Numbered from the stretch's first letter, positions 2,848 to 19,393 are shown. The stretch is 32,000 nucleotides of DNA from Nostoc punctiforme PCC 73102 (GCF_000020025.1 NC_010628.1:2340001-2372000); one strand, 5' to 3'. Numbers and translations: made by a program. The notes: a model not told the origin generated them from the letters alone.

Positions 2848-4353
2848 ATGACAATACAGCTGCTGAACGATCGCTATCAAGTTATCCGCACACTGGGTGC
2901 TGGTGGGTTTGGTGAAACCTATCTAGCAGAAGATACCTATATGCCCTCAAAGCGCCTTTGTGTGGTTAAACAGCTAAGACCAATTCACAATAATCCCCAA
3001 ATTTACCAGTTAGTGCAAGAGAGGTTTCAACGGGAAGCAGCTATTCTCGAAGAACTCGGTGGCGCAAATGACCAAATTCCAGCATTGTATGCCTATTTCT
3101 CCTCTGGTGGGCAATTTTACTTAGTCCAGGAGTGGGTTGAAGGCGATACCCTAACTGGAAAAGTTCAAAAGCAGGGGCTATTTAGTGAAGGCGCTGTCCA
3201 GGAATTATTCATAAATTTATTACCCGTCCTGGATTATGTTCACTCTAAGCACATCGTTCACCGCGATATTAAACCGGATAACATCATTGTGCGTCATCGT
3301 GATGGTAAACCAGTGCTGATTGATTTTGGCGCTATCCGGGAGTCAATGGGAACCGTAGTAAATTCTCAAGGCAATCCTACCAGTTCGATTGTGATTGGTA
3401 CACCTGGCTATATGCCGAGCGAACAAGCCGCAGGTAGGCCAGTTTATTCGAGTGATTTATACAGTTTAGGAATGACGATAATTTATTTACTTACTGGTAA
3501 ACAGGCGCAACAACTAGAGACGGATTCCCAGACGGGTGAAATCGTGTGGCGACAGTATGCGAGTCATGTTAGTCCAATCATAGCAGGAGCGATTGATAAA
3601 GCGATCGCATATCATCCGCGCGATCGCTACCCCACAGCTAGAGCAATGCTGGATACTTTGCAGAACATCGCAAATCCAATTCCACCAACGCAACCCATCT
3701 TGACTCAACCAACTATAGTTTCTGCACCACCACCTCAGACAGTGGCTGTCAAACCACAGCCAAATCCTCAAGGTAATAGTCAAAATAATATCCTTCTGGG
3801 CAGTTTGATTGCAGGTGGGCTAATCGGTGCATCTGTGATTATTAGCCAGGTATTAACAAAACCTACTCAATCTACAGCAGACAAAACGGTATTACCTTCA
3901 GAAACTCCGTCAAATGTCACCAGCCCAGTGAGAGAAACTCCTAAATTTATACCAACTACCTCATCTGTTCCTACTCAAACCCCATCTGCTCCTACTCAAA
4001 CCCCATCTGTTACTACTCAAATTACACCCGCCCCAACGACATCAATACCGCCAGTAGGTACCACGACTGCCAACACTTATTTATGGCTTTCCCAAAGACT
4101 TGTAAATGATGCAGATTTGGATGGTAAAGACGGTTTTGAACTAGATATTATGCGAAATTCGATTTTTGCTAGTCACGGCCGCCGTTTTGATACTCCTGGA
4201 TTACAAGATTATTTTGACAACCTACCTTGGTATAAACCTATATATTCACCAAAAGCGTTTCCATCTAAATTACTGTCAAAATTAGAGCAACAAAATATCG
4301 AGTATATCAACAAATATCAAGAACGTTACGGCTTGAGATATTTTAAGAAATAA
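2848..4353 (+). CDS. Ser/Thr protein kinase with Pro/Thr-rich linker, one TM segment and C-terminal YARHG domain
   Basis: Kinase motifs: Gly-loop 'LGAGGFGETY', 'VVKQL' lysine, 'HRDIKPDN', 'DFG', 'GTPGYMPSEQ'. Hydrophobic segment 'ILLGSLIAGGLIGASVIISQVL'. C-terminal 'MRNSIFASHGRRFDTPGLQDYFDNLPWYKP' matches the YARHG signature. Confidence 0.9.
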   Translation: MTIQLLNDRYQVIRTLGAGGFGETYLAEDTYMPSKRLCVVKQLRPIHNNPQIYQLVQERFQREAAILEELGGANDQIPALYAYFSSGGQFYLVQEWVEGDTLTGKVQKQGLFSEGAVQELFINLLPVLDYVHSKHIVHRDIKPDNIIVRHRDGKPVLIDFGAIRESMGTVVNSQGNPTSSIVIGTPGYMPSEQAAGRPVYSSDLYSLGMTIIYLLTGKQAQQLETDSQTGEIVWRQYASHVSPIIAGAIDKAIAYHPRDRYPTARAMLDTLQNIANPIPPTQPILTQPTIVSAPPPQTVAVKPQPNPQGNSQNNILLGSLIAGGLIGASVIISQVLTKPTQSTADKTVLPSETPSNVTSPVRETPKFIPTTSSVPTQTPSAPTQTPSVTTQITPAPTTSIPPVGTTTANTYLWLSQRLVNDADLDGKDGFELDIMRNSIFASHGRRFDTPGLQDYFDNLPWYKPIYSPKAFPSKLLSKLEQQNIEYINKYQERYGLRYFKK

Positions 4354-5687: not shown

Positions 5688-5958
5688 TTAAGAGTTAAGA
5701 TTGATCCCCGTTCTTTTCTTGATGATCTACAAAATCAAAACCTCACAACATCTCATAAATTTAGATTTTTATTATAGGTGGGGTTCGCAACGAGTATCGC
5801 AGGATAAAGTAACATATTTGGTAAATTGCTTATATCCATATCTGTCAAAACTCGTTGCGACTCCATTCCCTAAACAATCTTCATAAAAATAGATAGCCTC
5901 ATTTTCTGCATATTTGGCAGAAAGTTGATGGCAGATATCTGAAAATATGAAATTCATT

Positions 5959-5990
5959 GATCCCCGACAATTTTAGCGAAGTCGGGGATC
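5959..5990. repeat. perfect 10-bp stem hairpin gatccccgac-N12-gtcggggatc
   Basis: Inverted repeat read directly from the sequence. This hairpin type is dispersed in Nostoc genomes. Confidence 0.5.
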
Positions 5991-6137
5991 TTGTTATTGA
6001 AATTTATCATAGCGATCGCCACTACTGGGAATCTTAGGAGTTCATAATCAAGTTAGTGGGAGTTTAGTTACAGAAGATGCTGTTCAGCAGAGAAATATTT
6101 CGTTTTACCGCAATTTTATTGAGGAAAATCATTAAAA

Positions 6138-6884
6138 ATGTTACTGCATTTGAGTACTTGGCAAGAAGTCGAAGCTTATTTACAGCAGTCGAAGGGGATT
6201 ATTTTCCCTATTGGTTCCACAGAACAACATGGCCCAACGGGGTTAATTGGTACTGATGCCATTTGTGCAGAAGCGATCGCAGCTGGTGTGGGTGATGCAA
6301 CTGGCGCGATCGTTGGCCCTACAATCAATGTGGGCATGGCACTGCATCATACTGCTTTTCCTGGCACAATCAGTCTGCGTCCTAGCACTTTAATTCAAGT
6401 AGTTCGAGATTATGTAACTTGTTTAGCCAAAGCTGGTTTTAGCAAGTTCTACTTTATCAACGGACACGGTGGTAATATTGCCACCCTCAAAGCGGCGTTT
6501 TCCGAAACTTATGCCCATTTAGAAGATTTGCAGATTGCCAATGCTCAACAAGTGCAGTGTCAAGTGGCAAACTGGTTTATGTGCGGTTCTGTATATAAGC
6601 TAGCTAAAGAGTTATATGGGGATCAAGAAGGTTCTCATGCAACACCAAGTGAAGTAGCCCTCACCCAATACGTTTATCCAGAGGCAATTAAGCAAGCACC
6701 CCTTTCACCAGAAGTTGCAAGCGGACACAGGATTTATAGCGCAGCTGACTTTCGAGTGCGTTATCCAGATGGACGTATGGGATCAAATCCTGGTTTAGCA
6801 ACACCAGAACACGGAAAGCAATTTTATGATTTAGCGGTGAAAGAACTCAGCAATGGATATTTGGAATTTGTGAACGCAGATTGA
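6138..6884 (+). CDS. creatininase (creatinine amidohydrolase) family protein
   Basis: 248-aa ORF with 'FPIGSTEQHGP' and 'FINGHGGN' motifs characteristic of the family. Confidence 0.85.
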   Translation: MLLHLSTWQEVEAYLQQSKGIIFPIGSTEQHGPTGLIGTDAICAEAIAAGVGDATGAIVGPTINVGMALHHTAFPGTISLRPSTLIQVVRDYVTCLAKAGFSKFYFINGHGGNIATLKAAFSETYAHLEDLQIANAQQVQCQVANWFMCGSVYKLAKELYGDQEGSHATPSEVALTQYVYPEAIKQAPLSPEVASGHRIYSAADFRVRYPDGRMGSNPGLATPEHGKQFYDLAVKELSNGYLEFVNAD

Positions 6885-6885
6885 A

Positions 6886-6910
6886 GGGGACAGGGGACAG
6901 GGGCAGGAGG
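6886..6910. repeat. STRR-like heptamer tandem repeat (GGGGACA)n
   Basis: ggggaca ggggaca ggggcag gagg lies immediately after the creatininase stop codon. Confidence 0.6.
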
Positions 6911-7015
6911 TAGAAACTCTATTTAATGTGTGAGTCCTGCTGCATTTGTACCCTTTCCCTTTCCCCCTTAACCGAAAAGTATTGGGGCTACGCCTACGCA
7001 CCAATTCCTACAAGC

Positions 7016-7618
7016 TCAACATTTATTTTTTAATTGCCGCAATTGCCACATCTTCCAGAAATAGCTAGAAATCCAATTGGTAATCATGTGAGCGACAATC
7101 GGCACTAATAGGTTGCCCGTAAGCAAGGCACTATATGCCAATATCATTCCAACAATTGTTGCCCAAATCACATAAGGCCATTGTTGAGAACCACTAAAAT
7201 GCAAGATGCCAAAGCAAAAACTAGATACAATGACAGCCGCATGATCTAAGCCTAAAGCTGAAAGCATTACACCCCGAAATAACAATTCTTCACTCAACCC
7301 TGGTAGTAAACCGAGCCAAATTAAGTCTGGTAACGCTAAGGGCTTCAGTACTACTTCTAGATAATAATCTGCACTTTTTCGATAGGGAGTCCAAACGCGA
7401 TAAGCTATGCCACTTAAGGCTGTAATGACAAACCCCAATCCCACACCCAACAGCAAATCTTTCTCGTCCCACTTCCAGGAAAATAGGGAAAAGTTACCAA
7501 AGTGCAACGACAGTTTGGCGACTATCAACAAAATGATTGCAGTCGCTCCCATCGCGCCAAGTACTTGGATGCGTGTCAGATATGGAATTTCTGGCTCTTG
7601 TTTTTGTTGTTCAACCAC
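7016..7618 (-). CDS. CPBP family intramembrane glutamic endopeptidase (CAAX protease/Abi-like)
   Basis: Multi-TM 200-aa ORF with 'SEELLFRG', 'FGILHF' and 'AHMITNW' motifs. Confidence 0.85.
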   Translation of the reverse strand: MVEQQKQEPEIPYLTRIQVLGAMGATAIILLIVAKLSLHFGNFSLFSWKWDEKDLLLGVGLGFVITALSGIAYRVWTPYRKSADYYLEVVLKPLALPDLIWLGLLPGLSEELLFRGVMLSALGLDHAAVIVSSFCFGILHFSGSQQWPYVIWATIVGMILAYSALLTGNLLVPIVAHMITNWISSYFWKMWQLRQLKNKC

Positions 7619-7627
7619 GGGTTTTTA

Positions 7628-7682
7628 GGGGAAGGGGCAGGGGGAAGGGAGCAGGGAGCAGGGAGCAGGGGACAGGGGGAAG
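7628..7682. repeat. STRR-like purine-rich heptamer array (GGGAGCA x3, GGGGACA)
   Basis: Tandem heptamers read directly (7647-7674 are the cleanest). Confidence 0.6.
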
Positions 7683-7700
7683 ATAGAACTCCTTCTGTAC

Positions 7701-7720
7701 AGACGCGATTAATCGCGTCT
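7701..7720. repeat. 20-bp perfect palindrome agacgcgattaatcgcgtct (copy 1)
   Basis: An identical copy sits at 8861-8880. Both are followed by ctc-ctaactc-type sequence. Confidence 0.75.
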
Positions 7721-7730
7721 CTCCTAACTC

Positions 7731-8795
7731 CTAACTTTTAATTACTGGCTGCAAAGGTGATAGTTTGGGACGGAGAGCGGAGGGGTTGATGCCTGCTTTG
7801 TGTGCTACTAATACGCCTACTGCTTCTAAATACGAGTTTACCTGTATAACTTTGATCCCCAACGGTTGGGGAGGAACTTTGATTAGAGTTTTATTTTCTT
7901 CTACTGTAATTATTTGGCATCGTCTTTGGCTTAAACTCAGTAAAGCACTGCTACCACAAGCATTTGCAGGTGCGATCGCAGCATCCACTTCATCTGCCCA
8001 AATATCTCCTTTTTCTGATGCAATCGCTCCTTTATCTATTATAAATTGTGGGGCACGACTTAATCCGACAAGGACGCACGGCAAAAAGGTATAGCCCAAT
8101 TCTTCGGCGGCGGAACGGGGTGATAAATCAGGTTGTGGAGGTTCGCTCAAAAGGGCGGGAGAATGGGCGCAAGGAATTTGAAAGGTTCGCACTAGCAAAT
8201 GACTAATTACGGCTTCTGCACCCGCTAGGGGATCAACGCCTTCACCGTGGCGGTATTTTTGTACTGCTTCTGAGTCCATATCATCGGGGAAACGGGCAAC
8301 AACTGCGATCGCTTCTGCCCCCGCTTTTTTTATTAATATCTCAGCTGCTCGTAATAAGCTATCTGGGTTGCCAATTGTTCCCCAACTCGCTCCCGATGCT
8401 GTAGTCCGTAATTCTACATTTAATGGTGCATCTGTAATTACATAATCTGTTAAGGCCAATCCCAGAGTTGCTCTGACTGCATCGGCTGCTTGTATATGCC
8501 GTAGCCGCAACTCTGGCTCAATAGCTTGGTCTAAAAGCAAACCTACTTTGTTGTTGCGGACTGGACGCAATCCCCAGCATCCAGAGGCGAATTTGTCAAG
8601 CCCGTAACCTTCAACATAGAAAGCATTAGGGAGATTCCAATACAAACTTGCGCCATTCAGGACATTGGGGTGAGTAATTAGGCGATCGCAAACCTGTGCT
8701 ATAACTTTGGCAACAGGTAAAGCATCTCCTGCATAACCCCCAATGGCAGCCCCAACGCCAGTTGGTACAATTAAAATAGCAGTGTATGGACGCAT
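7731..8795 (-). CDS. DUF3326-like conserved cyanobacterial/plant protein
   Basis: 'MRPYTAILIVPTGVGAAIGGYAGDALPVAKV...ITHPNVLNGA' matches my recollection of DUF3326. The ORF extends to 8834, but the ATG at 8795 fits the conserved N terminus. Confidence 0.65.
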   Translation of the reverse strand: MRPYTAILIVPTGVGAAIGGYAGDALPVAKVIAQVCDRLITHPNVLNGASLYWNLPNAFYVEGYGLDKFASGCWGLRPVRNNKVGLLLDQAIEPELRLRHIQAADAVRATLGLALTDYVITDAPLNVELRTTASGASWGTIGNPDSLLRAAEILIKKAGAEAIAVVARFPDDMDSEAVQKYRHGEGVDPLAGAEAVISHLLVRTFQIPCAHSPALLSEPPQPDLSPRSAAEELGYTFLPCVLVGLSRAPQFIIDKGAIASEKGDIWADEVDAAIAPANACGSSALLSLSQRRCQIITVEENKTLIKVPPQPLGIKVIQVNSYLEAVGVLVAHKAGINPSALRPKLSPLQPVIKS

Positions 8796-9699: not shown

Positions 9700-9747
9700 T
9701 ATACAATACACAAATAAATTAGTTAAATTTGCTTACTATAAATGTGC

Positions 9748-9776
9748 GCGTAGGCGTAGCCCGCCGTAGGCATCGC
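9748..9776 (+). repeat. 29-nt dispersed repeat gcgtaggcgtagcccgccgtaggcatcgc
   Basis: A near-identical copy lies at 19649-19677 in the same orientation. A half copy in reverse orientation lies at 6987-6999. Confidence 0.75.
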
Positions 9777-9824
9777 GTTTCTTTAGAGACTGTATCTGTA
9801 AGTCTGCCTTTTGGCATTGGTTCG

Positions 9825-10256
9825 ATGTCGTGGAAAGTTGACACCACACAAAAGAAGGCGGCTTGGTCGCTGTATGTGGAATTGGTGACGCGCATTGCTG
9901 TGCAACTATTAGAAGTTGACCAGGGTTTGGTACGAGAAGCGATGAACTCTCTTTATAGTTTATTTGGCACTACCCGCGAAGTTCTCAAAGCTGCCGGGCC
10001 TGATGTGGGTGCTTCTCGTGATTCAGTGGGGGGAATTGCGATCGCTGTGTTGAATAATGGGTTAAGACCGTTTTTGGCTAAATGGCATCCGTTGTTGCAA
10101 GCGTGGGAAGTTAGGCGACCTGTGGGGGTGAGTCCCAAGGAACATGAGCAGAGTTGGTCTGAAGAAGCGACGGTGCGAAGTGAATTAGACAAGTTGCGTG
10201 TGGATTTAGAACAGTATGCCAAGGCGTTGGCGACTATCGCAGGCGTGGGAGAGTGA
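9825..10256 (+). CDS. hypothetical helical protein (143 aa), first gene of the TIR-GUN4 pair
   Basis: The ATG at 9825 (MSWKVDTTQKK...) is chosen because the ORF-track N-terminal extension (from 9729) is encoded by the dispersed repeat. The stop TGA-TAA directly abuts the next ATG. Confidence 0.6.
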   Translation: MSWKVDTTQKKAAWSLYVELVTRIAVQLLEVDQGLVREAMNSLYSLFGTTREVLKAAGPDVGASRDSVGGIAIAVLNNGLRPFLAKWHPLLQAWEVRRPVGVSPKEHEQSWSEEATVRSELDKLRVDLEQYAKALATIAGVGE

Positions 10257-10259
10257 TAA

Positions 10260-11219
10260 ATGGAACAGTTTGATGTGTTTCTGGCTTATAATAGTTTGGA
10301 TAAGCCGGAAGTTCAAGACATCGCAGCAGCATTAAGAAGGCGTAATTTAGAACCCTGGATAGACGATGAGCAAATTCGACCAGGACGACCATTTCAAGAT
10401 GAAATCCAACAGGCAATTCCTCTAGTAAAATCTGCTGCTATCTTCTTTGGTGTGCTTGGTTTAGGACGCTGGCAAAGTTGGGAATTGAGATCCTTGATTA
10501 ATCAGTGTGTAAACAGAGGGATTCCGGTAATTCCTGTTTTGCTTCCTGGTGTTAATCAACTGCCTGACAACTTAATTTTTTTGAATGAATTTAGATGGGT
10601 CTGTTTCTCTCAAAGCATTGATGATGGGCGTGCTTTGTCTTTATTGGAATGGGGTATTACTGGGATAAAGCCAGAGTCACAACCTATTATTCATCCTCCA
10701 GTATTTGAAAGACCATCAAAACCACCAAAAACAATCCCAGAAGCACCCACTCAGACAGATGACCTATCCTCAGAAAAAGGCATACACTATACCAGACTAC
10801 GCGACCTACTAGTAGCAAAAAACTGGAAAGAAGCCGATAAAGAAACTTATCTGGTGATGATTCAGGTTGTAGGCAAAAAAGATGGCGACTACTTTTCTAG
10901 AGACGAACTTTTAAATTTTCCTTGCATTGACTTACTCACAATTGACCGCTTGTGGGTCAAATACAGTAATGGACACTTTGGCTTTAGCGTCCAGAAAGAA
11001 ATATACTTGAGCGTAGGCGGTAAAGCTGACGGCAATTATTATGAAGAAATTTGGGAAAAATTTGGTGATCGTGTGGGATGGAAATTTCAAAATATGTGGA
11101 TATTTGCTGTAATTTATAGTACAAATAAAGCTCCGAAAGGACACCTGCCTTTTGGGGAATTTAAGTTGGTGAAAGGAATTGTATATCTCTTCTTTCGCAT
11201 CGAGACTTGTAAACTGTAA
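10260..11219 (+). CDS. TIR domain - GUN4 domain fusion protein
   Basis: N-terminal 'FDVFLAYNSLDK...' with 'RWQSWELRS' (candidate catalytic Glu75) and 'IPVIPVLL' fits bacterial TIR_2. C-terminal 'WKEADKETYLVM...NFPCIDLLTIDRLWVKYSNGHFGFSVQKEIY' is a clear GUN4 core signature. A Pro-rich linker spans aa ~140-175. Confidence 0.85.
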   Translation: MEQFDVFLAYNSLDKPEVQDIAAALRRRNLEPWIDDEQIRPGRPFQDEIQQAIPLVKSAAIFFGVLGLGRWQSWELRSLINQCVNRGIPVIPVLLPGVNQLPDNLIFLNEFRWVCFSQSIDDGRALSLLEWGITGIKPESQPIIHPPVFERPSKPPKTIPEAPTQTDDLSSEKGIHYTRLRDLLVAKNWKEADKETYLVMIQVVGKKDGDYFSRDELLNFPCIDLLTIDRLWVKYSNGHFGFSVQKEIYLSVGGKADGNYYEEIWEKFGDRVGWKFQNMWIFAVIYSTNKAPKGHLPFGEFKLVKGIVYLFFRIETCKL

Positions 11220-11259: not shown

Positions 11260-12144
11260 ATGACGCGTTTCATACATGATCAATTCGCCAAAGACTATCT
11301 AGAAGAATTATTAAAAGATTACGGTGAAGTCAAAGCATCGGAAAAAGTCTCAGGAGAGATTAAAGAAATAGATGTTTTATTCACTCCTGCCAAACAACAA
11401 AGCTCTAATATACAAATACTGGGTTTGCTAGGAAGATTTGCTGAAAATCCTGCAATAATAGAACCCTTTCGGAATCCAGCTTCTACCGATGAAATCTGCG
11501 ACTGTATTTTAAAATTATTAGAAATCAAGGCTCTCTTACGACGAGAAGCTAAAGCTAATAAAACCAAACTTCAGGACTCAGAAATTCCCAAATTGTGGGT
11601 TCTTACACCTACCATATCTGAAACCAGATTGTCTAGCTTTGTAACTATGCAAAAAGACGGTTGGTTATCAGGAGTACATTTTCTCCCAGATGCCTTACGG
11701 ACAGCAATTGTAGCAATACACCAACTACCGCAAACACCGGAAACATTATGGTTGAGGCTTTTAGGTAGGGGAAGTGTGCAGTCACAAGCGATTATCGAGT
11801 TGCAAGCGTTACCATTAGATCATCCATACCAGAAAGCAACCCTAGAATTAGTTTATAACTTACGCGAAAACTTGAGAGTAAATCAAGAATTAGAAGCAGA
11901 TGATAGGGAGTTAATTATGCGACTAGAACCACTTTATCAAAGAGACAGAGAACAAGCTGTACAGTCAGGAGAACAACGTCTAGTTTTACGCTTACTCAAT
12001 CGCCGTATTGGTGAGATTGATAAGTCATTAATTGAGCGAATTCAAGGCTTATCGATTGAACAATTAGAGAATTTAGGAGAAGCATTGCTAGATTTTTCTA
12101 GTGTTGCTGATTTAGAAACTTGGTTAAACCAACAATCAATCTAA
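11260..12144 (+). CDS. Rpn/YhgA-like (PD-(D/E)XK) putative nuclease with C-terminal DUF4351
   Basis: N-terminal 'FIHDQFAKDYLEELL...EIKEIDVLFTP'. C-terminal 'GEQRLVLRLLNRRIGEIDKSLIERIQGLSIEQLENLGEALLDFSSVADLETWL' matches the DUF4351 consensus as I recall it. Confidence 0.7.
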   Translation: MTRFIHDQFAKDYLEELLKDYGEVKASEKVSGEIKEIDVLFTPAKQQSSNIQILGLLGRFAENPAIIEPFRNPASTDEICDCILKLLEIKALLRREAKANKTKLQDSEIPKLWVLTPTISETRLSSFVTMQKDGWLSGVHFLPDALRTAIVAIHQLPQTPETLWLRLLGRGSVQSQAIIELQALPLDHPYQKATLELVYNLRENLRVNQELEADDRELIMRLEPLYQRDREQAVQSGEQRLVLRLLNRRIGEIDKSLIERIQGLSIEQLENLGEALLDFSSVADLETWLNQQSI

Positions 12145-12456: not shown

Positions 12457-15120
12457 ATGCTAGAACAATATCGTAAACACGTTGCTGAAAGAGCAGCACT
12501 CGGTATTCCCCCTTTACCATTGGATGCGAAGCAAACCTCAGAATTATGTGAATTACTGAAAAATCCGCCAAAGGGTCAAGAGGAGATATTATTACATTTA
12601 TTGCGCGATCGCGTTTCTCCTGGTGTCGATCCAGCAGCTTATGTCAAAGCCGGATTCCTCACCGCGATTGCCAAGAAGGAAATCACCAGTCCCTTGGTTT
12701 CGCGCATAGAAGCAGTGCAATTGCTGGGCACGATGATAGGTGGTTACAATGTGCAATCTTTAATCGATTTGCTGCAATTTCCCACTGTATCCGTCTCAGA
12801 CTCATCTGAAACACCTTTAGTAATGGGTGGGCAAGGAAAGGAACCCATCGCCGCTTACGCCGCCAACGCCTTAAGCAAAATCCTCTTGGTGTATGACGCT
12901 TACCATGATGTTTTAGAGTTATCTAAAACCAATCCTTTCGCCAAGGTAGTAATTAACTCTTGGGCGGAAGCTGAATGGTTTACCATGCGCCCCACTGTCT
13001 CAGAAGCGATTACTGTCACCGTTTTTAAAGTTCCTGGTGAAACCAATACCGACGATTTATCCCCCGCCCAAAGCGCCACAACTCGCCCAGATATCCCCTT
13101 ACACGCCTTGGTAATGTTAGAGTCACGGCAACCAGGAAGTTTACAAACCATTGCCGAATTGAAGAAAAAAGGGCATCCTGTAGCTTACGTGGGAGATGTA
13201 GTTGGTACAGGTTCCTCGCGTAAATCTGCCATCAACTCGGTGTTGTGGCACATGGGAAATGATATACCTTTTGTGCCAAACAAACGCGCTGGGGGTTATG
13301 TTTTAGGTGGTGCGATCGCGCCAATCTTCTTTAACACAGCAGAAGATGCCGGTGCTTTGCCTATTCAGTGCGATGTCACCAAACTCGAAACCGGCATGGT
13401 AATTACCATCCATCCCTACAAAGGCGAAATTACCAACGAAGCAGGCGAAGTTATTTCCACCTTTGCCCTCAAACCTGATACCATCCTCGATGAAGTCCGC
13501 GCAGGTGGACGCATCCCCCTACTTATTGGACGTACCCTTACCGATAAAACTCGTCTTGCACTAGGTTTAGAACACAGTACTGTCTTTACCCGTCCCCAGC
13601 AAGCCTTTGATACAGGCAAAGGCTACAGCCTAGCACAGAAAATGGTCGGTAAAGCTTGCGGATTAACTGGTGTGCGTCCCGGCACATCTTGCGAACCCAT
13701 CATTACTACCGTTGGTTCTCAAGATACCACAGGCCCCATGACCCGCGACGAATTAAAAGAACTCGCTTGTCTTGGTTTCAGCGCAGACTTAGTGATACAA
13801 AGTTTCTGCCACACAGCAGCTTATCCCAAACCAGTAGACATCCAAACTCATCACGAACTCCCCGATTTCTTTGCTTCTCGTGGCGGTGTCGCTCTCCGTC
13901 CCGGTGATGGTATTATCCACTCTTGGTTAAACCGGATGCTGCTACCCGACACTGTGGGAACTGGCGGCGACTCTCACACCCGCTTCCCCTTGGGTATTTC
14001 CTTCCCCGCCGGTTCTGGATTGGTAGCTTTTGCAGCCGCCTTGGGTGTCACGCCTTTAGATATGCCAGAGTCAGTTTTGGTAAGATTCAAAGGAGAATTG
14101 CAACCAGGTATTACCCTGCGGGATGTTGTGAATGCCATTCCCTACGTAGCAATTCAAAAAGGTTTGCTGACAGTAGAGAAGCAGAACAAAAAAAATGTCT
14201 TCTCCGGGCGAATTCTGGAAATAGAAGGTTTGCCAGATTTAAAAGTTGAACAAGCCTTTGAACTCACCGATGCTAGTGCTGAACGTTCTTGTGCCGGATG
14301 CACAATTAAGCTGAGTGCAGAGACAATTTCTGAATATCTGCGTTCTAACGTAGCATTGCTGAAAAATATGATCGCACGGGGCTATCACGATCCGCGTACC
14401 ATGTTACGCCGTGTAGCAAAGATGGAAGAATGGTTAGCAAATCCTGTGTTATTAGAAGGCGATGCCGATGCGGAGTATGCCGAAATAATTGAAATTGATT
14501 TGAACGAAATTAAAGAACCAATTGTTGCTGCTCCCAATGACCCCGATAATGTTAAATTATTATCGGAAGTTGCTAACGATCCAGTGCAAGAAGTATTCGT
14601 CGGTTCTTGTATGACAAATATTGGTCATTATCGGGCAACAGCGAAAGTTTTGGAAGGTGCAGGTGAAGTAAAAACTCGCTTGTGGATAGCACCACCAACC
14701 CGCATGGATGAACACCAATTAAAAGAAGAAGGTGTATACAGCGTCTTTGGGGCTGCGGGTGCTAGAACAGAAATGCCAGGATGCAGTCTGTGCATGGGTA
14801 ATCAGGCACGAGTTGCTGATGGCACAACAGTATTTTCTACCTCTACCCGCAACTTCAATAATCGCATGGGTAAAGATGCGCGAGTGTATCTTGGTTCAGC
14901 AGAATTAGCCGCAGTTTGTGCGCTGCTAGGGCGGCTGCCAACAGTGCAGGAATACTTGGATATTGTGGCGAGTAGAATTCATCCTTTTGCAGATGATTTG
15001 TATCAGTATTTGAACTTCGATCAAATCCTTGGTTTTGAGGATGAAGGGCGCGTGATTGCGTTGGAAGATATGCCGAGGCTTGAGGATATTTTGGGTATGC
15101 CAGCTAGTAGTTTGCGTTAA
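12457..15120 (+). CDS. acnB: aconitate hydratase B (bifunctional aconitase 2 / 2-methylisocitrate dehydratase)
   Basis: Near-colinear with E. coli AcnB from '[19 protein letters not shown]' through 'GSCMTNIGH', '[11 protein letters not shown]' and '[12 protein letters not shown]'. The ATG at 12457 is preferred over the ORF-track start at 12442. Confidence 0.95.
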
Positions 15121-15136
15121 TAGATAATTAAAGTAG

Positions 15137-15153
15137 GGTGGGCGCTGCCCACC
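15137..15153 (+). terminator. GC-rich hairpin ggtgggc-gct-gcccacc after acnB
   Basis: 7-bp stem 17 nt after the stop codon. No T-tract follows, and it is also a known style of dispersed repeat. Confidence 0.35.
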
Positions 15154-15343
15154 TGACACCATCTGGTAGAACTTTAGCAGGTAAATAAAATAAGATTTTA
15201 TTAAGATTTATTATTAAAAGGTTATGAATTATCTAATAAAAATAGTTGCCTTTTATACTGTGATAGCTAATATCAATTTTTATACCTACAAGTCTAACAA
15301 GTTTCCTCTCTTATCGTAAAAATACCTTCAAAAATAAATACTT

Positions 15344-17257
15344 ATGCTAACTAAATGGACTCTTCAGTACTTTAAATCAGTGTGTGCTAAAACCACACTT
15401 GACATGGCTCCGCTAACTATATTTACTGGAGCAAACAGTTCGGGGAAAAGTACTATTATTCAAAGTCTTCTCTTAACTGCTCAAACTTTACAAAACCCTG
15501 TCTCATCTAGGTCTGTTATATTAAATGGGCATATTTTAAGAATTGGAGCATTCAATGATATTGTCTCAAACAATGATGAATCAAAAAATATTTTCATAGG
15601 GTTTGAGCTAACTCCAAATGTAGATGAGCGTGAGAGTTCTATTACAACATCTATGCGTTTTGATATTCCCCGTAGAGTTGAAGCTTTAACATCTATAGAT
15701 TGCTCTTTTAGCTTTTCAGCAACTGGCTCTGAAAAAGAGAGAGAAATAATACAACTACAACCACGCTTAGAAGAGTCTAGACTTAAAGTAAATTTTAAAT
15801 TGGTAGGCTCACCTAAAGAAGAAGAAGTTTATATTCGCAGAAGTAAAAAAAGTATAAAACAACGTCTACAAGAATATCAATTATTACAAAAAAGCCTTCA
15901 CAAAGTAGAGGTTGCATCTTTAGAATATGAAGTTAAGAAGCTAAGTGATTTGACAAAGGCAAGATATCGTCGTTATTATCGTTTTCATGCAATCGGGCAA
16001 CCAGTAGGGGCATTGCTCAACCACTTCTTACCAGGAAAAATTTCTATTGTTTTCGATTCTGTTGAAGAACAATCAAGACAGTTAGTTGATTTTCTAACTA
16101 TTCGAGAAGATGAAGATATATGGTTTTATAGAACAAGAGGTATCAGTATAGAAGAGATAAATAGTTTATTAAATGAAAGTGTTCAATTTATTATTATAAA
16201 TACGCTTAAAGAAGCATCTGAACATATTTATAAGACAGAAAGTTCCAGCAGTAAAAGCTTTATGAACAATATTATAAATCTAGAAAATGACTTTACCATT
16301 CAAAACTTATCAAGCTGCTATAAATTACCTACTGCTAAAAAAAGAACATTAGCTCAAAGGCTAGCTGAAAAATATGATAATATCCTCAATGCTGTCAGAG
16401 CTAATCGTCCTATAGATAACAGGGTTTCGTATTTTCCTCTACCCGATATTTCGGAACTTGCTGTTGATTATATTCAGGGCTTTTTTACTCGTTTTGTGAA
16501 ATATTTAGGGCCATTACGAGATGAGCCAAAACCAGTTTATTCTCTTACTGGTACAACTGATTCTAAGGATATAGGTTTTAGAGGTGAACATACAGCTGCT
16601 GTTTTGGATGTTAATCGAAATACAAAAGTAGAGTATATACCTAGTAATCAACTAAAATTTGGTAGCAATGAAACTATCACTAAGGCTGATTTTTTACCAA
16701 TTGCAGTACTAGATTGGTTAAATTATATGGGAGTAGCTAGTGATGTCCAGACATTGGATAAAGGTAAGCTAGGTCATGAACTCAAAGTTGCTACTACAGG
16801 TTCTTTATTATTGCATGATCTTACTCATGTTGGAGTAGGTGTGAGTCAAGTTTTACCAATTTTAGTACAATCTTTGTTAGCAGAAAAAGGTTCTACTTTA
16901 ATTTTTGAGCAACCAGAATTACATTTACATCCTCGTGTTCAAACACGTTTAGCAGACTTTTTTATATCAATGACAATGCTGAAAAAGCAATGTATTGTAG
17001 AAACCCATAGTGAATATTTAATAAATAGACTTCGCTATCAGGCTGCTGCTTCAGAAGGGGAAGAGATATCTAAAAACGTTCTTATATATTTTGTAGAAAA
17101 ACAGAGTGGTGAATCTAAATATAGACCTGTAAAACTTAATAAATTTGGTGTACTTGAAGACTGGCCAAAAGGTTTCTTTGATGAAAATGAAGAAAATGCC
17201 AGAGCTATTATAAAAGCTGCTATGGAAAAAAGAAAAAACGAGTCAAGTAAACAGTAA
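15344..17257 (+). CDS. ABC/OLD-type AAA ATPase with DUF3696-like C terminus
   Basis: Walker A 'GANSSGKST' (aa 29-37), 'YLGPLRDEP' (aa 387-395), signature-like 'HVGVGVSQVLPIL' (aa 495-507), Walker B 'TLIFEQPELHLHP' (aa 518-530), 'ETHSEYLINRL' (the HSE motif of DUF3696) and 'WPKGFFDE'. A ~450-aa insertion between Walker A and B contains a charged, coiled-coil-like stretch. Confidence 0.9.
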   Translation: MLTKWTLQYFKSVCAKTTLDMAPLTIFTGANSSGKSTIIQSLLLTAQTLQNPVSSRSVILNGHILRIGAFNDIVSNNDESKNIFIGFELTPNVDERESSITTSMRFDIPRRVEALTSIDCSFSFSATGSEKEREIIQLQPRLEESRLKVNFKLVGSPKEEEVYIRRSKKSIKQRLQEYQLLQKSLHKVEVASLEYEVKKLSDLTKARYRRYYRFHAIGQPVGALLNHFLPGKISIVFDSVEEQSRQLVDFLTIREDEDIWFYRTRGISIEEINSLLNESVQFIIINTLKEASEHIYKTESSSSKSFMNNIINLENDFTIQNLSSCYKLPTAKKRTLAQRLAEKYDNILNAVRANRPIDNRVSYFPLPDISELAVDYIQGFFTRFVKYLGPLRDEPKPVYSLTGTTDSKDIGFRGEHTAAVLDVNRNTKVEYIPSNQLKFGSNETITKADFLPIAVLDWLNYMGVASDVQTLDKGKLGHELKVATTGSLLLHDLTHVGVGVSQVLPILVQSLLAEKGSTLIFEQPELHLHPRVQTRLADFFISMTMLKKQCIVETHSEYLINRLRYQAAASEGEEISKNVLIYFVEKQSGESKYRPVKLNKFGVLEDWPKGFFDENEENARAIIKAAMEKRKNESSKQ

Positions 17258-17283
17258 TAAACCTATATATCAAAATATAAAAT

Positions 17284-18342
17284 ATGTATAAAATATACGT
17301 AGATCCGTATTTACTTGTTTATCCTCAAGCAAATTCGGGAATTGATGAATTTGAAAACTATATTCATAGCCTAATTTCATGGGGCGAGGAAATAAAAAAA
17401 ATAAAGGAAGCTAATTTAGCTACATTATATTTGTCTGCAAAAACTCCTGAAATATTAGCTAATATTAATGGATATCCAGAAAGAAATGAGTTAGAAAAAT
17501 TAATTGTAGATTTAAATTTACAAAATGAAATAGATCCTCATGATATATTAATTTTAATTGAAAGCTTCTTAAAACTTCCTTTTGTTGAAGACAGACTTAA
17601 TATAAATGCAATATTAATCGATAATATACAGTGTGACCCTGTTTTTTACCTTGATGGAAGAAATGAGATTTTTGTACAAATTTATTATGAATTAACAGTT
17701 TTAATATTTTTGTTATGCAAAATCGAAAATTTATCCAATAAACATCAAATCATAGTTACCCGCTATATACAGGCAGAAAATACACAGATTTTAATAGAAT
17801 GTGAAATAGTAGATTGTGAATTTTGTAATAATTCATGCCATGTAAACATTCCGTATGATGTTAGTATTTCTTTGCAATCCTTTGTCAATCCGAATAGTTT
17901 ACATAATTATTTTGATGCTTTAGATATTTGGATTAATGCTAATCAGTGTGAAGAAGTTTATAAAAAAGCTATTACTATTTTTGTTACGCAGACAAATAAG
18001 CAATTAGAAAAGCCAAAACCTATCAATGAAATTACTTATTGGTTATTTGGTAGCCGTTTATTAAAAAGCTTAAAAGATTTAGGTTTTCTAGATGAACATA
18101 TAAAAACTAAAATGTTACTTCGTACTTGTGCTGAAATAATTTTAAAACAAAATATGGGTGATACTCATTGGTTGAGAACAGGTAAAGGTGCAAATAATCC
18201 TCAGAAAAAGCGTAAAAAGGATGGAACCAAAGCTTGGAGAAGAGATATTGATCACGAATATCATTTACATTATTGGGAAACAGAGCGTGGTATAGAATTC
18301 GCTTCAGTTGTAATTCATAATGATATGAAAATTCCTGAATAG
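17284..18342 (+). CDS. orphan protein (352 aa), putative effector partner of the ATPase
   Basis: Long ORF 26 nt downstream of the ATPase on the same strand, with the same AT-rich composition. Cys cluster 'CEIVDCEFCNNSCH' (aa 172-186). Basic patch 'KKRKKDGTK'. C-terminal 'AWRRDIDHEYHLHYWETERGIEFASVVIHND' is reminiscent of RelE/YoeB-fold toxins. Confidence 0.8.
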   Translation: MYKIYVDPYLLVYPQANSGIDEFENYIHSLISWGEEIKKIKEANLATLYLSAKTPEILANINGYPERNELEKLIVDLNLQNEIDPHDILILIESFLKLPFVEDRLNINAILIDNIQCDPVFYLDGRNEIFVQIYYELTVLIFLLCKIENLSNKHQIIVTRYIQAENTQILIECEIVDCEFCNNSCHVNIPYDVSISLQSFVNPNSLHNYFDALDIWINANQCEEVYKKAITIFVTQTNKQLEKPKPINEITYWLFGSRLLKSLKDLGFLDEHIKTKMLLRTCAEIILKQNMGDTHWLRTGKGANNPQKKRKKDGTKAWRRDIDHEYHLHYWETERGIEFASVVIHNDMKIPE

Positions 18343-18379
18343 CTTTACAGTTTTGCGAAAGAGTGCTGGTTACTAGGTT

Positions 18380-18565
18380 GCTTTATGCTTAGAAAATAGA
18401 CTGATAGGACTAGGGATAAATCAAGAAGCAGCAATCAAGTAACTTAATGAAGCGATCGCATCTTTTTTGGAAGTCTATAAAATAGAATCTGATATTTACT
18501 GTACTTCAGTAAGTACAGAAGAATTACATGAGTTTTTGACAGTGGAAAACACTAAATTCATCTGA
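18380..18565 (+). pseudogene. possible degraded HicB/UPF0150-like antitoxin fragment
   Basis: Hand translation gives ALCLENRLIGLGINQEAAIK*LNEAIASFLEVYKIESDIYCTSVSTEELHEFLTVENTKFI*. 'QEAAIK-LNEAIASFLE' resembles the HicB 'EEAlxNlkEAIelyLE' helix. There is an in-frame stop at 18440-18442 and no N-terminal part. Confidence 0.25.
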
Positions 18566-18853
18566 TAAATCCATACTTTGAATCAAGCTAATCGCCTTTA
18601 ACTACACATTATACATTGAATTGAATGTATATTCTGAAACACAGCTATTCCTGGTAATCAAAGATAAATACTTGCTTTCCTCACAAGTTCCTCAAATTGT
18701 TTTGCTATATATAAATATGGGGCGAAAACCTTTAAGAATATTTAAAATTCAAAAATCGCTAAACATAGTTGAGGAATTAGTCATTTTTGACAATCCAGCA
18801 TTTGGAAATCTGAAACAGTAAAGACCAATTACCAATGAAATAGGAGGTCTATT

Positions 18854-19393
18854 ATGATGTTTAAAAAGATTTTAGTTGCATTAGATCGCTCGGAAATAGG
18901 GCAACAGGTTTTTCAAGAAGCATTGAGTTTAGCAAAGTTAACACAAGCTAGCTTAATGTTAGTCCATGTCCTATCTCCAGAAGAAGAGGGTAGTCCTTAT
19001 GTACCTATGATGTCTAATTTTGACTACTATCCAGGATTGAGTAGTCAAAGCTTTGAGTTATACCAAAAGCAGTGGGATAACTTTAAAAATTTGGGAATCC
19101 AGATGTTGCAATCTTTCTGTGCCCAAGCTAATACAGCAGGTGTAAATACAGAATTTACACAAAATGTTGGTAATCCTGGCAGGATTATTTGTGACTTAGC
19201 CCATAGTTCTGGCACTGACCTAATTGTTATGGGGCGGCGGGGTCATTCTGGGCTGATGGAACTATTTCTTGGTAGTGTGAGTAACTACGTTCTTCACCAT
19301 GCTCCTTGTTCGGTTCATGTTGTGCATCTTTCAGCTGCTGTTAAAAAAGATGAAGTTGTCAAAGAAACTACAAGTACTTTAAGCGTTAACTAA
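18854..19393 (+). CDS. universal stress protein (UspA family)
   Basis: 'FKKILVALDRSE...' and 'VMGRRGHSGLMELFLGSVSNYVLHHAPCSVHVV'. An aggagg Shine-Dalgarno sequence lies 6 nt upstream. Confidence 0.9.
   Translation: MMFKKILVALDRSEIGQQVFQEALSLAKLTQASLMLVHVLSPEEEGSPYVPMMSNFDYYPGLSSQSFELYQKQWDNFKNLGIQMLQSFCAQANTAGVNTEFTQNVGNPGRIICDLAHSSGTDLIVMGRRGHSGLMELFLGSVSNYVLHHAPCSVHVVHLSAAVKKDEVVKETTSTLSVN

Follow-up and report, generated by a model that had tools for sequence, protein, structure and literature searches.

The question posed by a two-gene locus of Nostoc punctiforme PCC 73102 is whether an ATPase and the protein encoded directly behind it form an anti-phage system, and how such a system would relate to those already named. 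The locus occupies positions 15,344 to 18,342 of a stretch of 32,000 nucleotides (nt) (GCF_000020025.1 NC_010628.1:2340001-2372000), which was analysed as a whole and is referred to as the window, and it had been flagged from its sequence as a candidate undescribed defence system (the original prediction). The pair is described here as a relative of Menshen, the NsnA-NsnB-NsnC system reportedly described by Millman in 2022, that lacks NsnA, has a long ATPase and carries a new effector family, and as such makes a good candidate for a defence system. It does not amount to a new category, since the ATPase clade and the logic of joining a sensor ATPase to a toxic nuclease are both already known. 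It is considered rather probable that the two genes constitute an autonomous two-component anti-phage module of the abortive-infection type, related to Menshen and without NsnA. The module is provisionally left unnamed.

Conservation and company of the gene pair

Both open reading frames (ORFs) lie on the + strand, at 15344-17257 (637 amino acids, aa) and 17284-18342 (352 aa), are co-directional and are separated by 26 nt, exactly as first read, and the terminator scan bore out the reported lack of a hairpin between them, with no terminator-like structure on the + strand of the gap. The second protein, called the partner below, had been taken for an orphan, which it is not. A word-indexed search returned 48 clusters of its family and an exhaustive profile search returned 1,705 representatives at 50% identity (482 of them at E<=1e-30), almost all of ~340 aa and aligned end to end. 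Among the best 120 database matches of the first protein, the long-form ATPase is nearly always 590-655 aa long (46-94% identity), apart from two 520-aa fragments.

The two genes were found together whichever of them the search began with. Directly upstream of four distant relatives of the partner (4/4) lies a 615-634-aa AAA_15/AAA_21/DUF3696 gene whose stop codon overlaps the start of the partner gene. A species-level scan, which took one genome per species and used a motif pattern that misses divergent branches, gave 43 partner loci in at least 10 phyla, and the long ATPase is immediately upstream at every locus with intact upstream sequence. The scan and the loci of the four distant relatives together yielded 29 complete non-redundant pairs, and the exceptions to the pairing are decayed or truncated copies with fragmentary ORFs. 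Reciprocally, four long-form ATPases picked regardless of their partner are each followed by a partner-family gene (4/4, hidden Markov model (HMM) E=1e-93 to 1e-124). At homologous loci the two genes mostly overlap by 1-20 nt or are separated by a few nt. They are inherited strictly together and as a rule with translational coupling, and both the predicted co-occurrence beyond this genome and the proposed logic of an ABC/OLD-type ATPase with an effector are matched by a conserved two-gene operon.

Seven loci that matched residues ~253-352 alone (tblastn) had suggested shuffling of the C-terminal domain onto other N-termini. This was ruled out, as the intact ORFs encode full-length partners and the others are pseudogene fragments or truncated at contig ends. 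Decayed copies were recorded at L009 (10001-11059), L012 (7998-9954), L013, L037, L038, L043 and L048; the partner of Nostoc DedSLP01 is split into 79 + 210 aa and the ATPase of Planktothrix into 132 + 408 aa, and fragments occur elsewhere.

No third gene is conserved family-wide around the pair, and the recurring neighbours are lineage-specific (BREX genes, acnB). Homologues of NsnA are absent within 10 kb at any of ~50 loci searched by jackhmmer with two genuine NsnA proteins, which find each other at E~1e-190, and DUF262 is not among the called neighbours of the loci inspected in either pairing direction. One locus (L014) has a 611-aa ORF with a DGQQR motif upstream on the opposite strand (5896-7731, -), which may be a DUF262/GmrSD-type restriction gene and is not homologous to NsnA by jackhmmer.

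The company kept by the homologues gives strong support to the expected association with defence islands. The 101 nearest neighbours of 27 loci include 9 PglX, 6 BrxH-type helicases, 4 BrxC/DUF6079 and 2 PglZ proteins, and therefore about one third of the loci are embedded in BREX operons. One locus adjoins Gabija and AbiEi, others lie near Mrr, an SLFN helicase, MazG, an LXG toxin with its immunity gene, or serine recombinases, and one copy is carried between IS5 copies on a conjugative Acetobacter plasmid. In P2-like prophages of Klebsiella (12 phage records) and E. coli the pair is located between the replication nickase gene gpA and the portal gene, a region known as a P2 defence hotspot (Rousset et al. 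2022, PMC9122126). The native copy in an E. coli P2 prophage (WP_089570522.1 / WP_001676492.1) offers a way to test the system in a standard model. A tblastn search with the Nostoc partner gave no match in phages or plasmids, and the relatives borne by mobile genetic elements surfaced solely via the ATPase and the family HMM. The accessions of the pair and its two PHROGs are not mentioned in the open-access literature searched.

One subclade was observed inside BREX-like operons on the same strand, with BrxC/DUF6079 upstream and PglX and PglZ downstream (L005, L024, L025, L031, L034, L041, L042, L046, L047), and its members share unannotated neighbours, for example ORFs of 333, 213 and 438 aa in L005.

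The ATPase and its partner protein

The first gene encodes an ABC ATPase of the DUF3696 clade. Pfam models AAA_15 (2.6e-22), AAA_21 (1.2e-15) and DUF3696 (3.4e-09) all match above cut-off, the last at aa 577-620 with 37.3 bits against a cut-off of 22. In PADLOC-DB v2.0.0 (2023), NsnB of Menshen is the best of 86 matches (1.5e-70, 236.7 bits), followed by HEC-03B (1.4e-52), PDC-M55A (6e-47) and AriA of PARIS (7e-27), with weaker matches to PtuA (1.8e-07) and, over the core only, to GajA and Old (E~1e-8 to 1e-9). The protein also matches phrog_21420 at 2e-108. Its AlphaFold 2 (AF2) model has a predicted local distance difference test score (pLDDT) of 80 and a predicted template modelling score (pTM) of 0.80, and in Foldseek it matches the heads of SMC, Rad50 and condensin (E~5e-11) and retron-associated PtuA (E~8e-9); by sequence, the sole match in the PDB is an OLD nuclease (6e-5). 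The features of the gene, with motif conservation taken from an alignment of 53 homologues, are as follows.

15344..17257, + strand: long-form DUF3696 ABC ATPase, NsnB-like, 637 aa (Pfam, PADLOC, PHROG, AF2)
15428..15454, + strand: Walker A / P-loop GANSSGKST, aa 29-37; G29, N31, G34 and K35 invariant
15584..16399, + strand: family-specific insertion, aa ~81-352 (HMM blocks compared with NsnB; AF2 secondary structure)
16502..16519, + strand: YLGPLR, aa 387-392, at the Q-loop position with Arg for Gln; Y387, P390 and R392 invariant
16832..16849, + strand: GVGVSQ, aa 497-502, at the signature position with GxG for SGG; G497, V498, G499, S501 and Q502 invariant
16895..16912, + strand: Walker B TLIFEQ, aa 518-523, with an E-Q dyad for D-E; F521, E522 and Q523 invariant
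17000..17014, + strand: H-loop ETHSE, aa 553-557; E553, H555 and S556 invariant
17072..17251, + strand: C-terminal strands, WPKGFF and DUF3696 helix, aa 577-636 (Pfam DUF3696; AF2 helix 616-636)

All of the ATPase motifs quoted in the original prediction are present in the translation, including GVGVSQVLPIL at 497-507, LIFEQPELHLHP at 519-530 and WPKGFFDE at 607-614, and the two residues it had singled out for mutation, K35 and E522, are invariant. As judged from the sequence, the motifs for ATP binding and hydrolysis are intact. Its account of the region between them needs correction, as the distance from Walker A to YLGPLR is ~350 aa and the true insertion relative to NsnB is ~280 aa, not ~450. 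When the family HMM is aligned to two genuine NsnB proteins, solely positions 1-86 and 370-616 match, which leaves ~280 residues at a site where NsnB has ~34 and ATPases of the HEC-03B/PDC-M55A type have ~117. AF2 predicts a beta-rich module (~81-238) followed by a bundle of short helices (~239-352), and this secondary structure rules out the long, charged coiled coil that had been proposed there. Conservation within the ATPase is lowest in the insertion, with a top-residue frequency of 0.24-0.45 compared with 0.74-0.98 in the catalytic core.

The second gene encodes the partner, which has no match in Pfam, NCBIfam or PADLOC and reaches only a non-significant E=0.13 with phrog_19449 in PHROG; a profile search of the PDB returned a spurious match to CASK and nothing else. 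With the family alignment as input, its AF2 model has a pLDDT of 92.9 and a pTM of 0.86, and three regions can be distinguished.

17284..18342, + strand: partner / effector gene, unannotated family, 352 aa (family searches, AF2)
17284..17883, + strand: N-terminal alpha/beta domain, aa 1-200 (DSSP of the AF2 model)
17884..18093, + strand: helical linker, aa 201-270, a variable region (DSSP of the model)
18094..18339, + strand: C-terminal RelE/YafQ/YoeB-like (BECR) domain, aa 271-352 (AF2, Foldseek, hhalign)

The C-terminal domain is modelled as one helix and a four-stranded antiparallel sheet, with the BECR core formed by helix 272-286 and strands 294-296, 316-321, 326-332 and 337-344, all at pLDDT > 90. 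Ranks 1-11 of the Foldseek search against the PDB are all toxins of the RelE superfamily (YafQ, ParE2 (5czf), HP0894, YoeB, RelK), the best being YafQ 9lew_B with probability 1.00 and a template modelling (TM) score of 0.75 normalised to the toxin. The structure 8phj of Cami1 is also among the matches; Cami1 (CARF-RelE) joins a large sensor domain to a RelE domain and is a defence effector that acts on the ribosome (cited in PMC12065111). In a library of viral structures (BFVD) the top matches are proteins of ~100 aa, one of them named 'cytotoxic translational repressor'. Modelling thus gives the partner a RelE/YafQ/YoeB-like domain, and, in line with the original prediction, which had seen no HNH or Toprim motif in it, Pfam and PADLOC give no such match either.

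Across 136 relatives the C-terminal domain is by far the most conserved region of the protein, with R298, R319, H329 and W331 invariant and H295, Q307, D323, Y330 and H345 conserved in at least 90%. In hhalign, residues 301-345 align to residues 40-83 of YoeB in the register expected from the fold, so that AWRRDID.EYHLHYW sits over YoeB FWSRRITEEHRLVYA and Q307, H327 and H345 fall on E46, R65 and H83 of YoeB, which we take to be its catalytic residues. In a permissive Pfam scan of the individual members, YoeB_toxin was the sole coherent recurring family (2/136 relatives, E=0.017). On the basis of the model, the domain is proposed to be a RelE-fold RNase toxin. The putative catalytic set was seen to vary between branches of the family, as it does among RelE, YoeB and YafQ; the partners of P2 prophages have RLMFW for HLHYW and no C-terminal HND (L061 7551-8576, E. 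coli; L058 6931-7947, Klebsiella phage).

The N-terminal domain consists of a beta-alpha-beta-alpha(3)-beta-alpha-beta unit and a beta-hairpin (DSSP of the model). It is variable, with a top-residue frequency of ~0.3, and at least 90% of sequences keep D7 and E102. It is proposed to be a docking or regulatory domain. A PIN-like fold is possible and unproven, the PIN signal in Foldseek consisting of VapC 3zvk_B alone at rank 47 (E=1.5, probability 0.10).

Relation to named systems and proposed function

Menshen is the closest relative. Its NsnA is a ParB-DUF262 sensor, its NsnB an ABC ATPase with a DUF3696 helix in which the Walker B DE is changed to EN, the Q-loop Gln to Arg and SGG to GxG, and its NsnC an inactive PIN-like N-terminal domain (inPIN) joined to a C-terminal effector, which belongs to BECR in 9/15 effector families and has YafQ as the best structural match in the archetype (Li et al. 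NAR 2025, PMC12065111). AlphaFold 3 models dock the DUF3696 helix of NsnB onto the N-terminal domain of NsnC (PMC12065111), and SMC is reported as the solved fold closest to NsnB. The survey of Li et al. was seeded on NsnA (PMC12065111) and was therefore blind to pairs that lack it.

It is the NsnB-NsnC half of this design that recurs in the window pair. Its ATPase has NsnB as its best match among defence models, a C-terminal DUF3696 helix, R392 at the Q-loop, the G497-x-G499 signature and a Glu-first Walker B dyad, which is E-Q where that of NsnB is E-N. The downstream partner of ~340 aa has the layout of NsnC, with a variable N-terminal alpha/beta region and a conserved C-terminal BECR/RelE-like domain, shares with it YafQ as the best structural match, and the association with BREX is frequent in both. 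The differences are equally consistent. No locus has an NsnA/DUF262 gene, the gene 5' of the window ATPase being that of aconitase B, and the ATPase is of ~630 aa compared with 345-370 aa in the compact NsnB, because of the ~280-aa insertion in its N-terminal lobe. The partner has no sequence similarity to two genuine NsnC proteins (hhalign < 1%), and the PADLOC NsnC models, which detect those two at 6e-89 and 5e-39, match neither the window partner (E up to 1) nor the E. coli partner (E up to 0.01). The claim that the pair fits no described two-gene system is accordingly upheld for the partner, which has no match in PADLOC, Pfam, NCBIfam or PHROGs, and has to be qualified for the ATPase, which is closest to Menshen NsnB, and for the NsnC-like design of the partner.

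Resemblance to other systems is more distant. In PARIS (AriA + AriB) and in Septu and retron-Ec78 (PtuA + PtuB) an ABC ATPase sensor of the OLD/SMC-like kind keeps a toxic nuclease sequestered and then switches it on, and PARIS, too, is cargo of P2/P4 hotspots. The ATPase here is, however, of the DUF3696 clade with a different insertion, and the partner is RelE-like, unlike the DUF4435 Toprim protein AriB, with no Pfam or PADLOC match to AriB, HNH or PtuB. Gabija and OLD differ in that the window ATPase has no fused Toprim domain (Pfam) and its partner is not a UvrD-like GajB helicase. HEC-03 (A+B) and PDC-M55 (A+B+C) are small operons without canonical NsnA that also have DUF3696 ATPases (HEC-03B and PDC-M55A), but these are of ~470 aa with ~117 aa at the insertion site, and HEC-03A (177 aa) and PDC-M55B come from families other than that of the window partner. 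Membership of the pair in either system was rejected, the partner having no PADLOC match where genuine HEC-03A (Azotobacter) and PDC-M55B (Bacillus) score 9e-28 and 2.5e-26. With the partners of these two controls unrelated, the DUF3696 clade anchors at least four partner modules, of which that of the window pair is unnamed. Both HEC-03 loci seen, on Aeromonas and Azotobacter plasmids, have a gene for an 'RNA ligase family protein' after HEC-03A (L060 5755-6993, L063 4749-5980), which may be a third component of HEC-03.

The RelE superfamily (YafQ, YoeB, RelE, HigB, ParE) resembles the last ~80 residues of the partner in the predicted one-helix, four-strand fold, and YoeB also in sequence register and a C-terminal His. 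The partner differs in that the domain is fused behind an N-terminal region of ~270 aa and reaches the Pfam threshold for none of these families, and its putative catalytic residues are Q/H/H where YoeB has E/R/H. Type II toxin-antitoxin (TA) systems differ further, as no small antitoxin gene is present and the sole conserved neighbour, in its place, is the gene of the 637-aa ATPase. A pairing of OLD-ABC ATPases with alternative nucleases, including 'PIN-endoRNases', has been described as providing backup suicidal effectors in BREX loci (2026, PMC12839542), and the members of the present family that lie within BREX may be among these pairings.

By analogy with Menshen, PARIS and Septu, the ATPase would oligomerise and its DUF3696 helix would bind the N-terminal domain of the partner and keep it inactive, as predicted for NsnB-NsnC. 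The variable insertion would stand in for NsnA and offer the surface on which a product of the phage, or a perturbation caused by it, is detected, and ATP binding or hydrolysis would then release the partner or activate it allosterically. The RelE-like domain would cleave RNA, most likely ribosome-bound mRNA and possibly tRNA or rRNA, and the resulting arrest of translation would abort the infection. A bolder version, put forward tentatively and given somewhat less than an even chance, is that the pair represents an immune system of two genes in its own right, autonomous and very widespread, in which the hypervariable insertion of the ATPase replaces NsnA as the phage sensor and the ATPase directly licenses a new family of RelE-fold RNase effectors, and which P2-like prophages and BREX have captured repeatedly as a second line of abortive infection.

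Several points weigh against the proposed anti-phage module and its RNase effector. The RelE-like assignment of the partner rests on predicted structure; the Foldseek E-values are weak (best 0.025), because solely the last ~100 residues match, the hhalign comparison with the YoeB profile is weak as well (probability 11%, pairwise P=0.0027), and the Pfam RelE, YoeB and ParE models reach no significance on the partner. The candidate catalytic residues are chemically unlike those of YoeB (Q for E, H for R), and the E. coli/Klebsiella branch, with RLMFW for HLHYW, lacks them. Analogy is also the basis for the interaction of ATPase and partner, for the oligomeric state and for the insertion as a putative sensor. 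Several relatives of the pair are pseudogenised, and the decayed copies suggest that its function is frequently lost. In the window the neighbours of the pair are housekeeping genes and not other defence systems, and the E. coli version has been listed as P2 hotspot cargo with its accessions absent from the table of evaluated systems (PMC9122126).

Three other explanations were weighed against that of an anti-phage module. It is unlikely that the pair is a TA or addiction-type module that serves mainly in the stabilisation of mobile elements or in stress responses, and not against phage, and in which the partner is the toxin and the ATPase its proteinaceous neutraliser. This explanation overlaps the anti-phage one, because many TA modules are themselves abortive-infection systems. 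The RelE-superfamily fold would suit it, and so would the Pfam label of AAA_21 ('putative AbiEii toxin, Type IV TA system'), but gene order and sizes are unlike those of type II systems with their small, labile antitoxin and its DNA-binding domain, and the ATPase is far the larger and more conserved of the two proteins and has a hypervariable insertion. The genomic positions divide in the same way: the conjugative-plasmid copy lies beside a plasmid-stabilisation gene and a RelE/RelB pair, other copies are in prophages and recombinase-flanked elements and the Nostocales copy has a stable seat among housekeeping genes, whereas placement in the P2 gpA-portal hotspot and in BREX is typical of defence cargo and Menshen, the closest relative, is treated as an anti-phage system (PMC12065111). 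An effector that acts other than by RelE-like RNA cleavage, whether as a ParE-like gyrase poison, a ribosome- or RNA-binding module or a nuclease located in the N-terminal domain and possibly PIN-like, is judged to be quite improbable. ParE2 (5czf) is among the top structural matches and the His residues of HLHYW are missing from the E. coli branch, but conservation within the partner is by far the highest in the C-terminal domain, which has many invariant Arg and His residues, like the RNase members of the fold. The N-terminal candidate draws on the conservation of D7 and E102, on the position of D7 after strand 1, like that of the first acidic residue of PIN domains, and on the 'PIN-endoRNases' found with OLD-ABC ATPases in BREX loci (PMC12839542); active PINs, however, have four acidic residues where two are conserved here, and the structural signal for PIN, at its low rank and probability, is negligible.

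The remaining explanation, a degenerate or split Menshen that uses an NsnA (ParB-DUF262) encoded elsewhere, or a BREX 'backup effector' that is not autonomous, is held to be very improbable. The NsnB match and the NsnC-like two-domain design agree with its first form, but no NsnA homologue is found at <= 10 kb with a search whose controls are so strongly recovered, the whole family has conserved a ~280-aa insertion that NsnB lacks, and the NsnC models that catch genuine NsnC miss the partner. Its second form has in its favour the third of the loci that lie in BREX operons and the described role of OLD-ABC and nuclease dyads as BREX backup effectors (PMC12839542), and is opposed by the majority of loci, including those of the window, the P2 prophages and the plasmid, which have no BREX genes nearby.

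If confirmed, the anti-phage module would turn a sizeable family of 'hypothetical proteins' into a defined defence system, with at least 1,700 partner clusters at 50% identity, a long-form ATPase family of similar size and an occurrence in more than 10 phyla, prophages, plasmids and BREX operons. A natural experiment on DUF3696/NsnB-type ATPases would be a further gain, since one and the same core has a separate sensor in Menshen and other partners in HEC-03 and PDC-M55, and here apparently does without a sensor subunit by means of its own variable module. Comparison of these systems could reveal the route of the signal to the effector, a point not settled by the analysis of Menshen. For cyanobacteria, in which the repertoire of phage defences is poorly characterised, the module would provide a conserved candidate immune locus beside acnB in Nostocales.

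The locus in Nostoc punctiforme

The direct neighbours of the pair in the window are aconitase B (acnB) and a universal stress protein (Usp). The neighbours with a Pfam match are creatininase, DUF3326, a TIR-GUN4 protein, DUF4351 and aconitase B on the 5' side, and Usp, DOPA dioxygenase, Rieske oxygenase and pirin on the 3' side. None of the window ORFs of >= 90 aa that were tested is from a TA family, so that the toxin-antitoxin debris said to adjoin the pair was not recovered. The non-coding elements around the two genes are listed below.

15139..15155, + strand: GC-rich inverted repeat GGTGGGCgctGCCCACC, perfect, directly after the acnB stop (read from the sequence)
15156..15343, + strand: very AT-rich upstream region of 188 nt (sequence)
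17258..17283, + strand: AT-rich intergenic spacer of 26 nt (sequence)

The inverted repeat resembles a terminator and is likely to be the 3' boundary of the acnB transcript; the terminator scan did not call it, because no T-run follows. The pair probably has its own promoter and leader within 15156..15343. A consensus promoter scan of 15000-19000 gave 20 sites compared with 19.1 in shuffled sequence, and no specific promoter was assigned. An Rfam scan of the window gave no match.

The pair had been placed in a compositionally foreign island. The low GC content is real (0.27-0.34 over 15000-19000, compared with 0.45-0.50 in acnB and ~0.40 downstream), but the order acnB followed by the pair is also found in Calothrix and Nodularia, besides Nostoc, and this synteny rules out a recent horizontal island in Nostocales. 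Contigs with an identical Usp show the same arrangement of the pair. Identity to the Nodularia counterparts is 87% for AcnB, 55% for the ATPase and 45% for the partner. Given the synteny after acnB, the Nostocales locus is long-resident and not a recent insertion, and it is fast-evolving relative to its flanks.

Some further features of the window were recorded. An AT-rich gap of 510 nt (18343-18853) with no ORF > 66 aa and no Rfam match separates the partner stop from usp, and the corresponding gap in the Nostoc locus L007 is ~635 nt. A TIR_2 + GUN4 fusion protein of 319 aa is encoded at 10260-11219 (+), 4 nt after the end of a 175-aa ORF without a Pfam match (9729-10256, +). TIR domains are common in immune systems and the fusion to GUN4 is unusual; a TIR-GUN4 protein of 55% identity is encoded in the related Nostoc locus L008. 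Between this gene and acnB lies that of a DUF4351 protein (Rpn / PD-(D/E)XK-transposase-like; 11260-12144, +), which is kept at the same position in the Nostoc loci L007 and L009. Further upstream, two ORFs without a Pfam match (1850-2179 and 2252-2800) precede the gene of a Ser/Thr protein kinase with a C-terminal YARHG domain (2848-4353, +).

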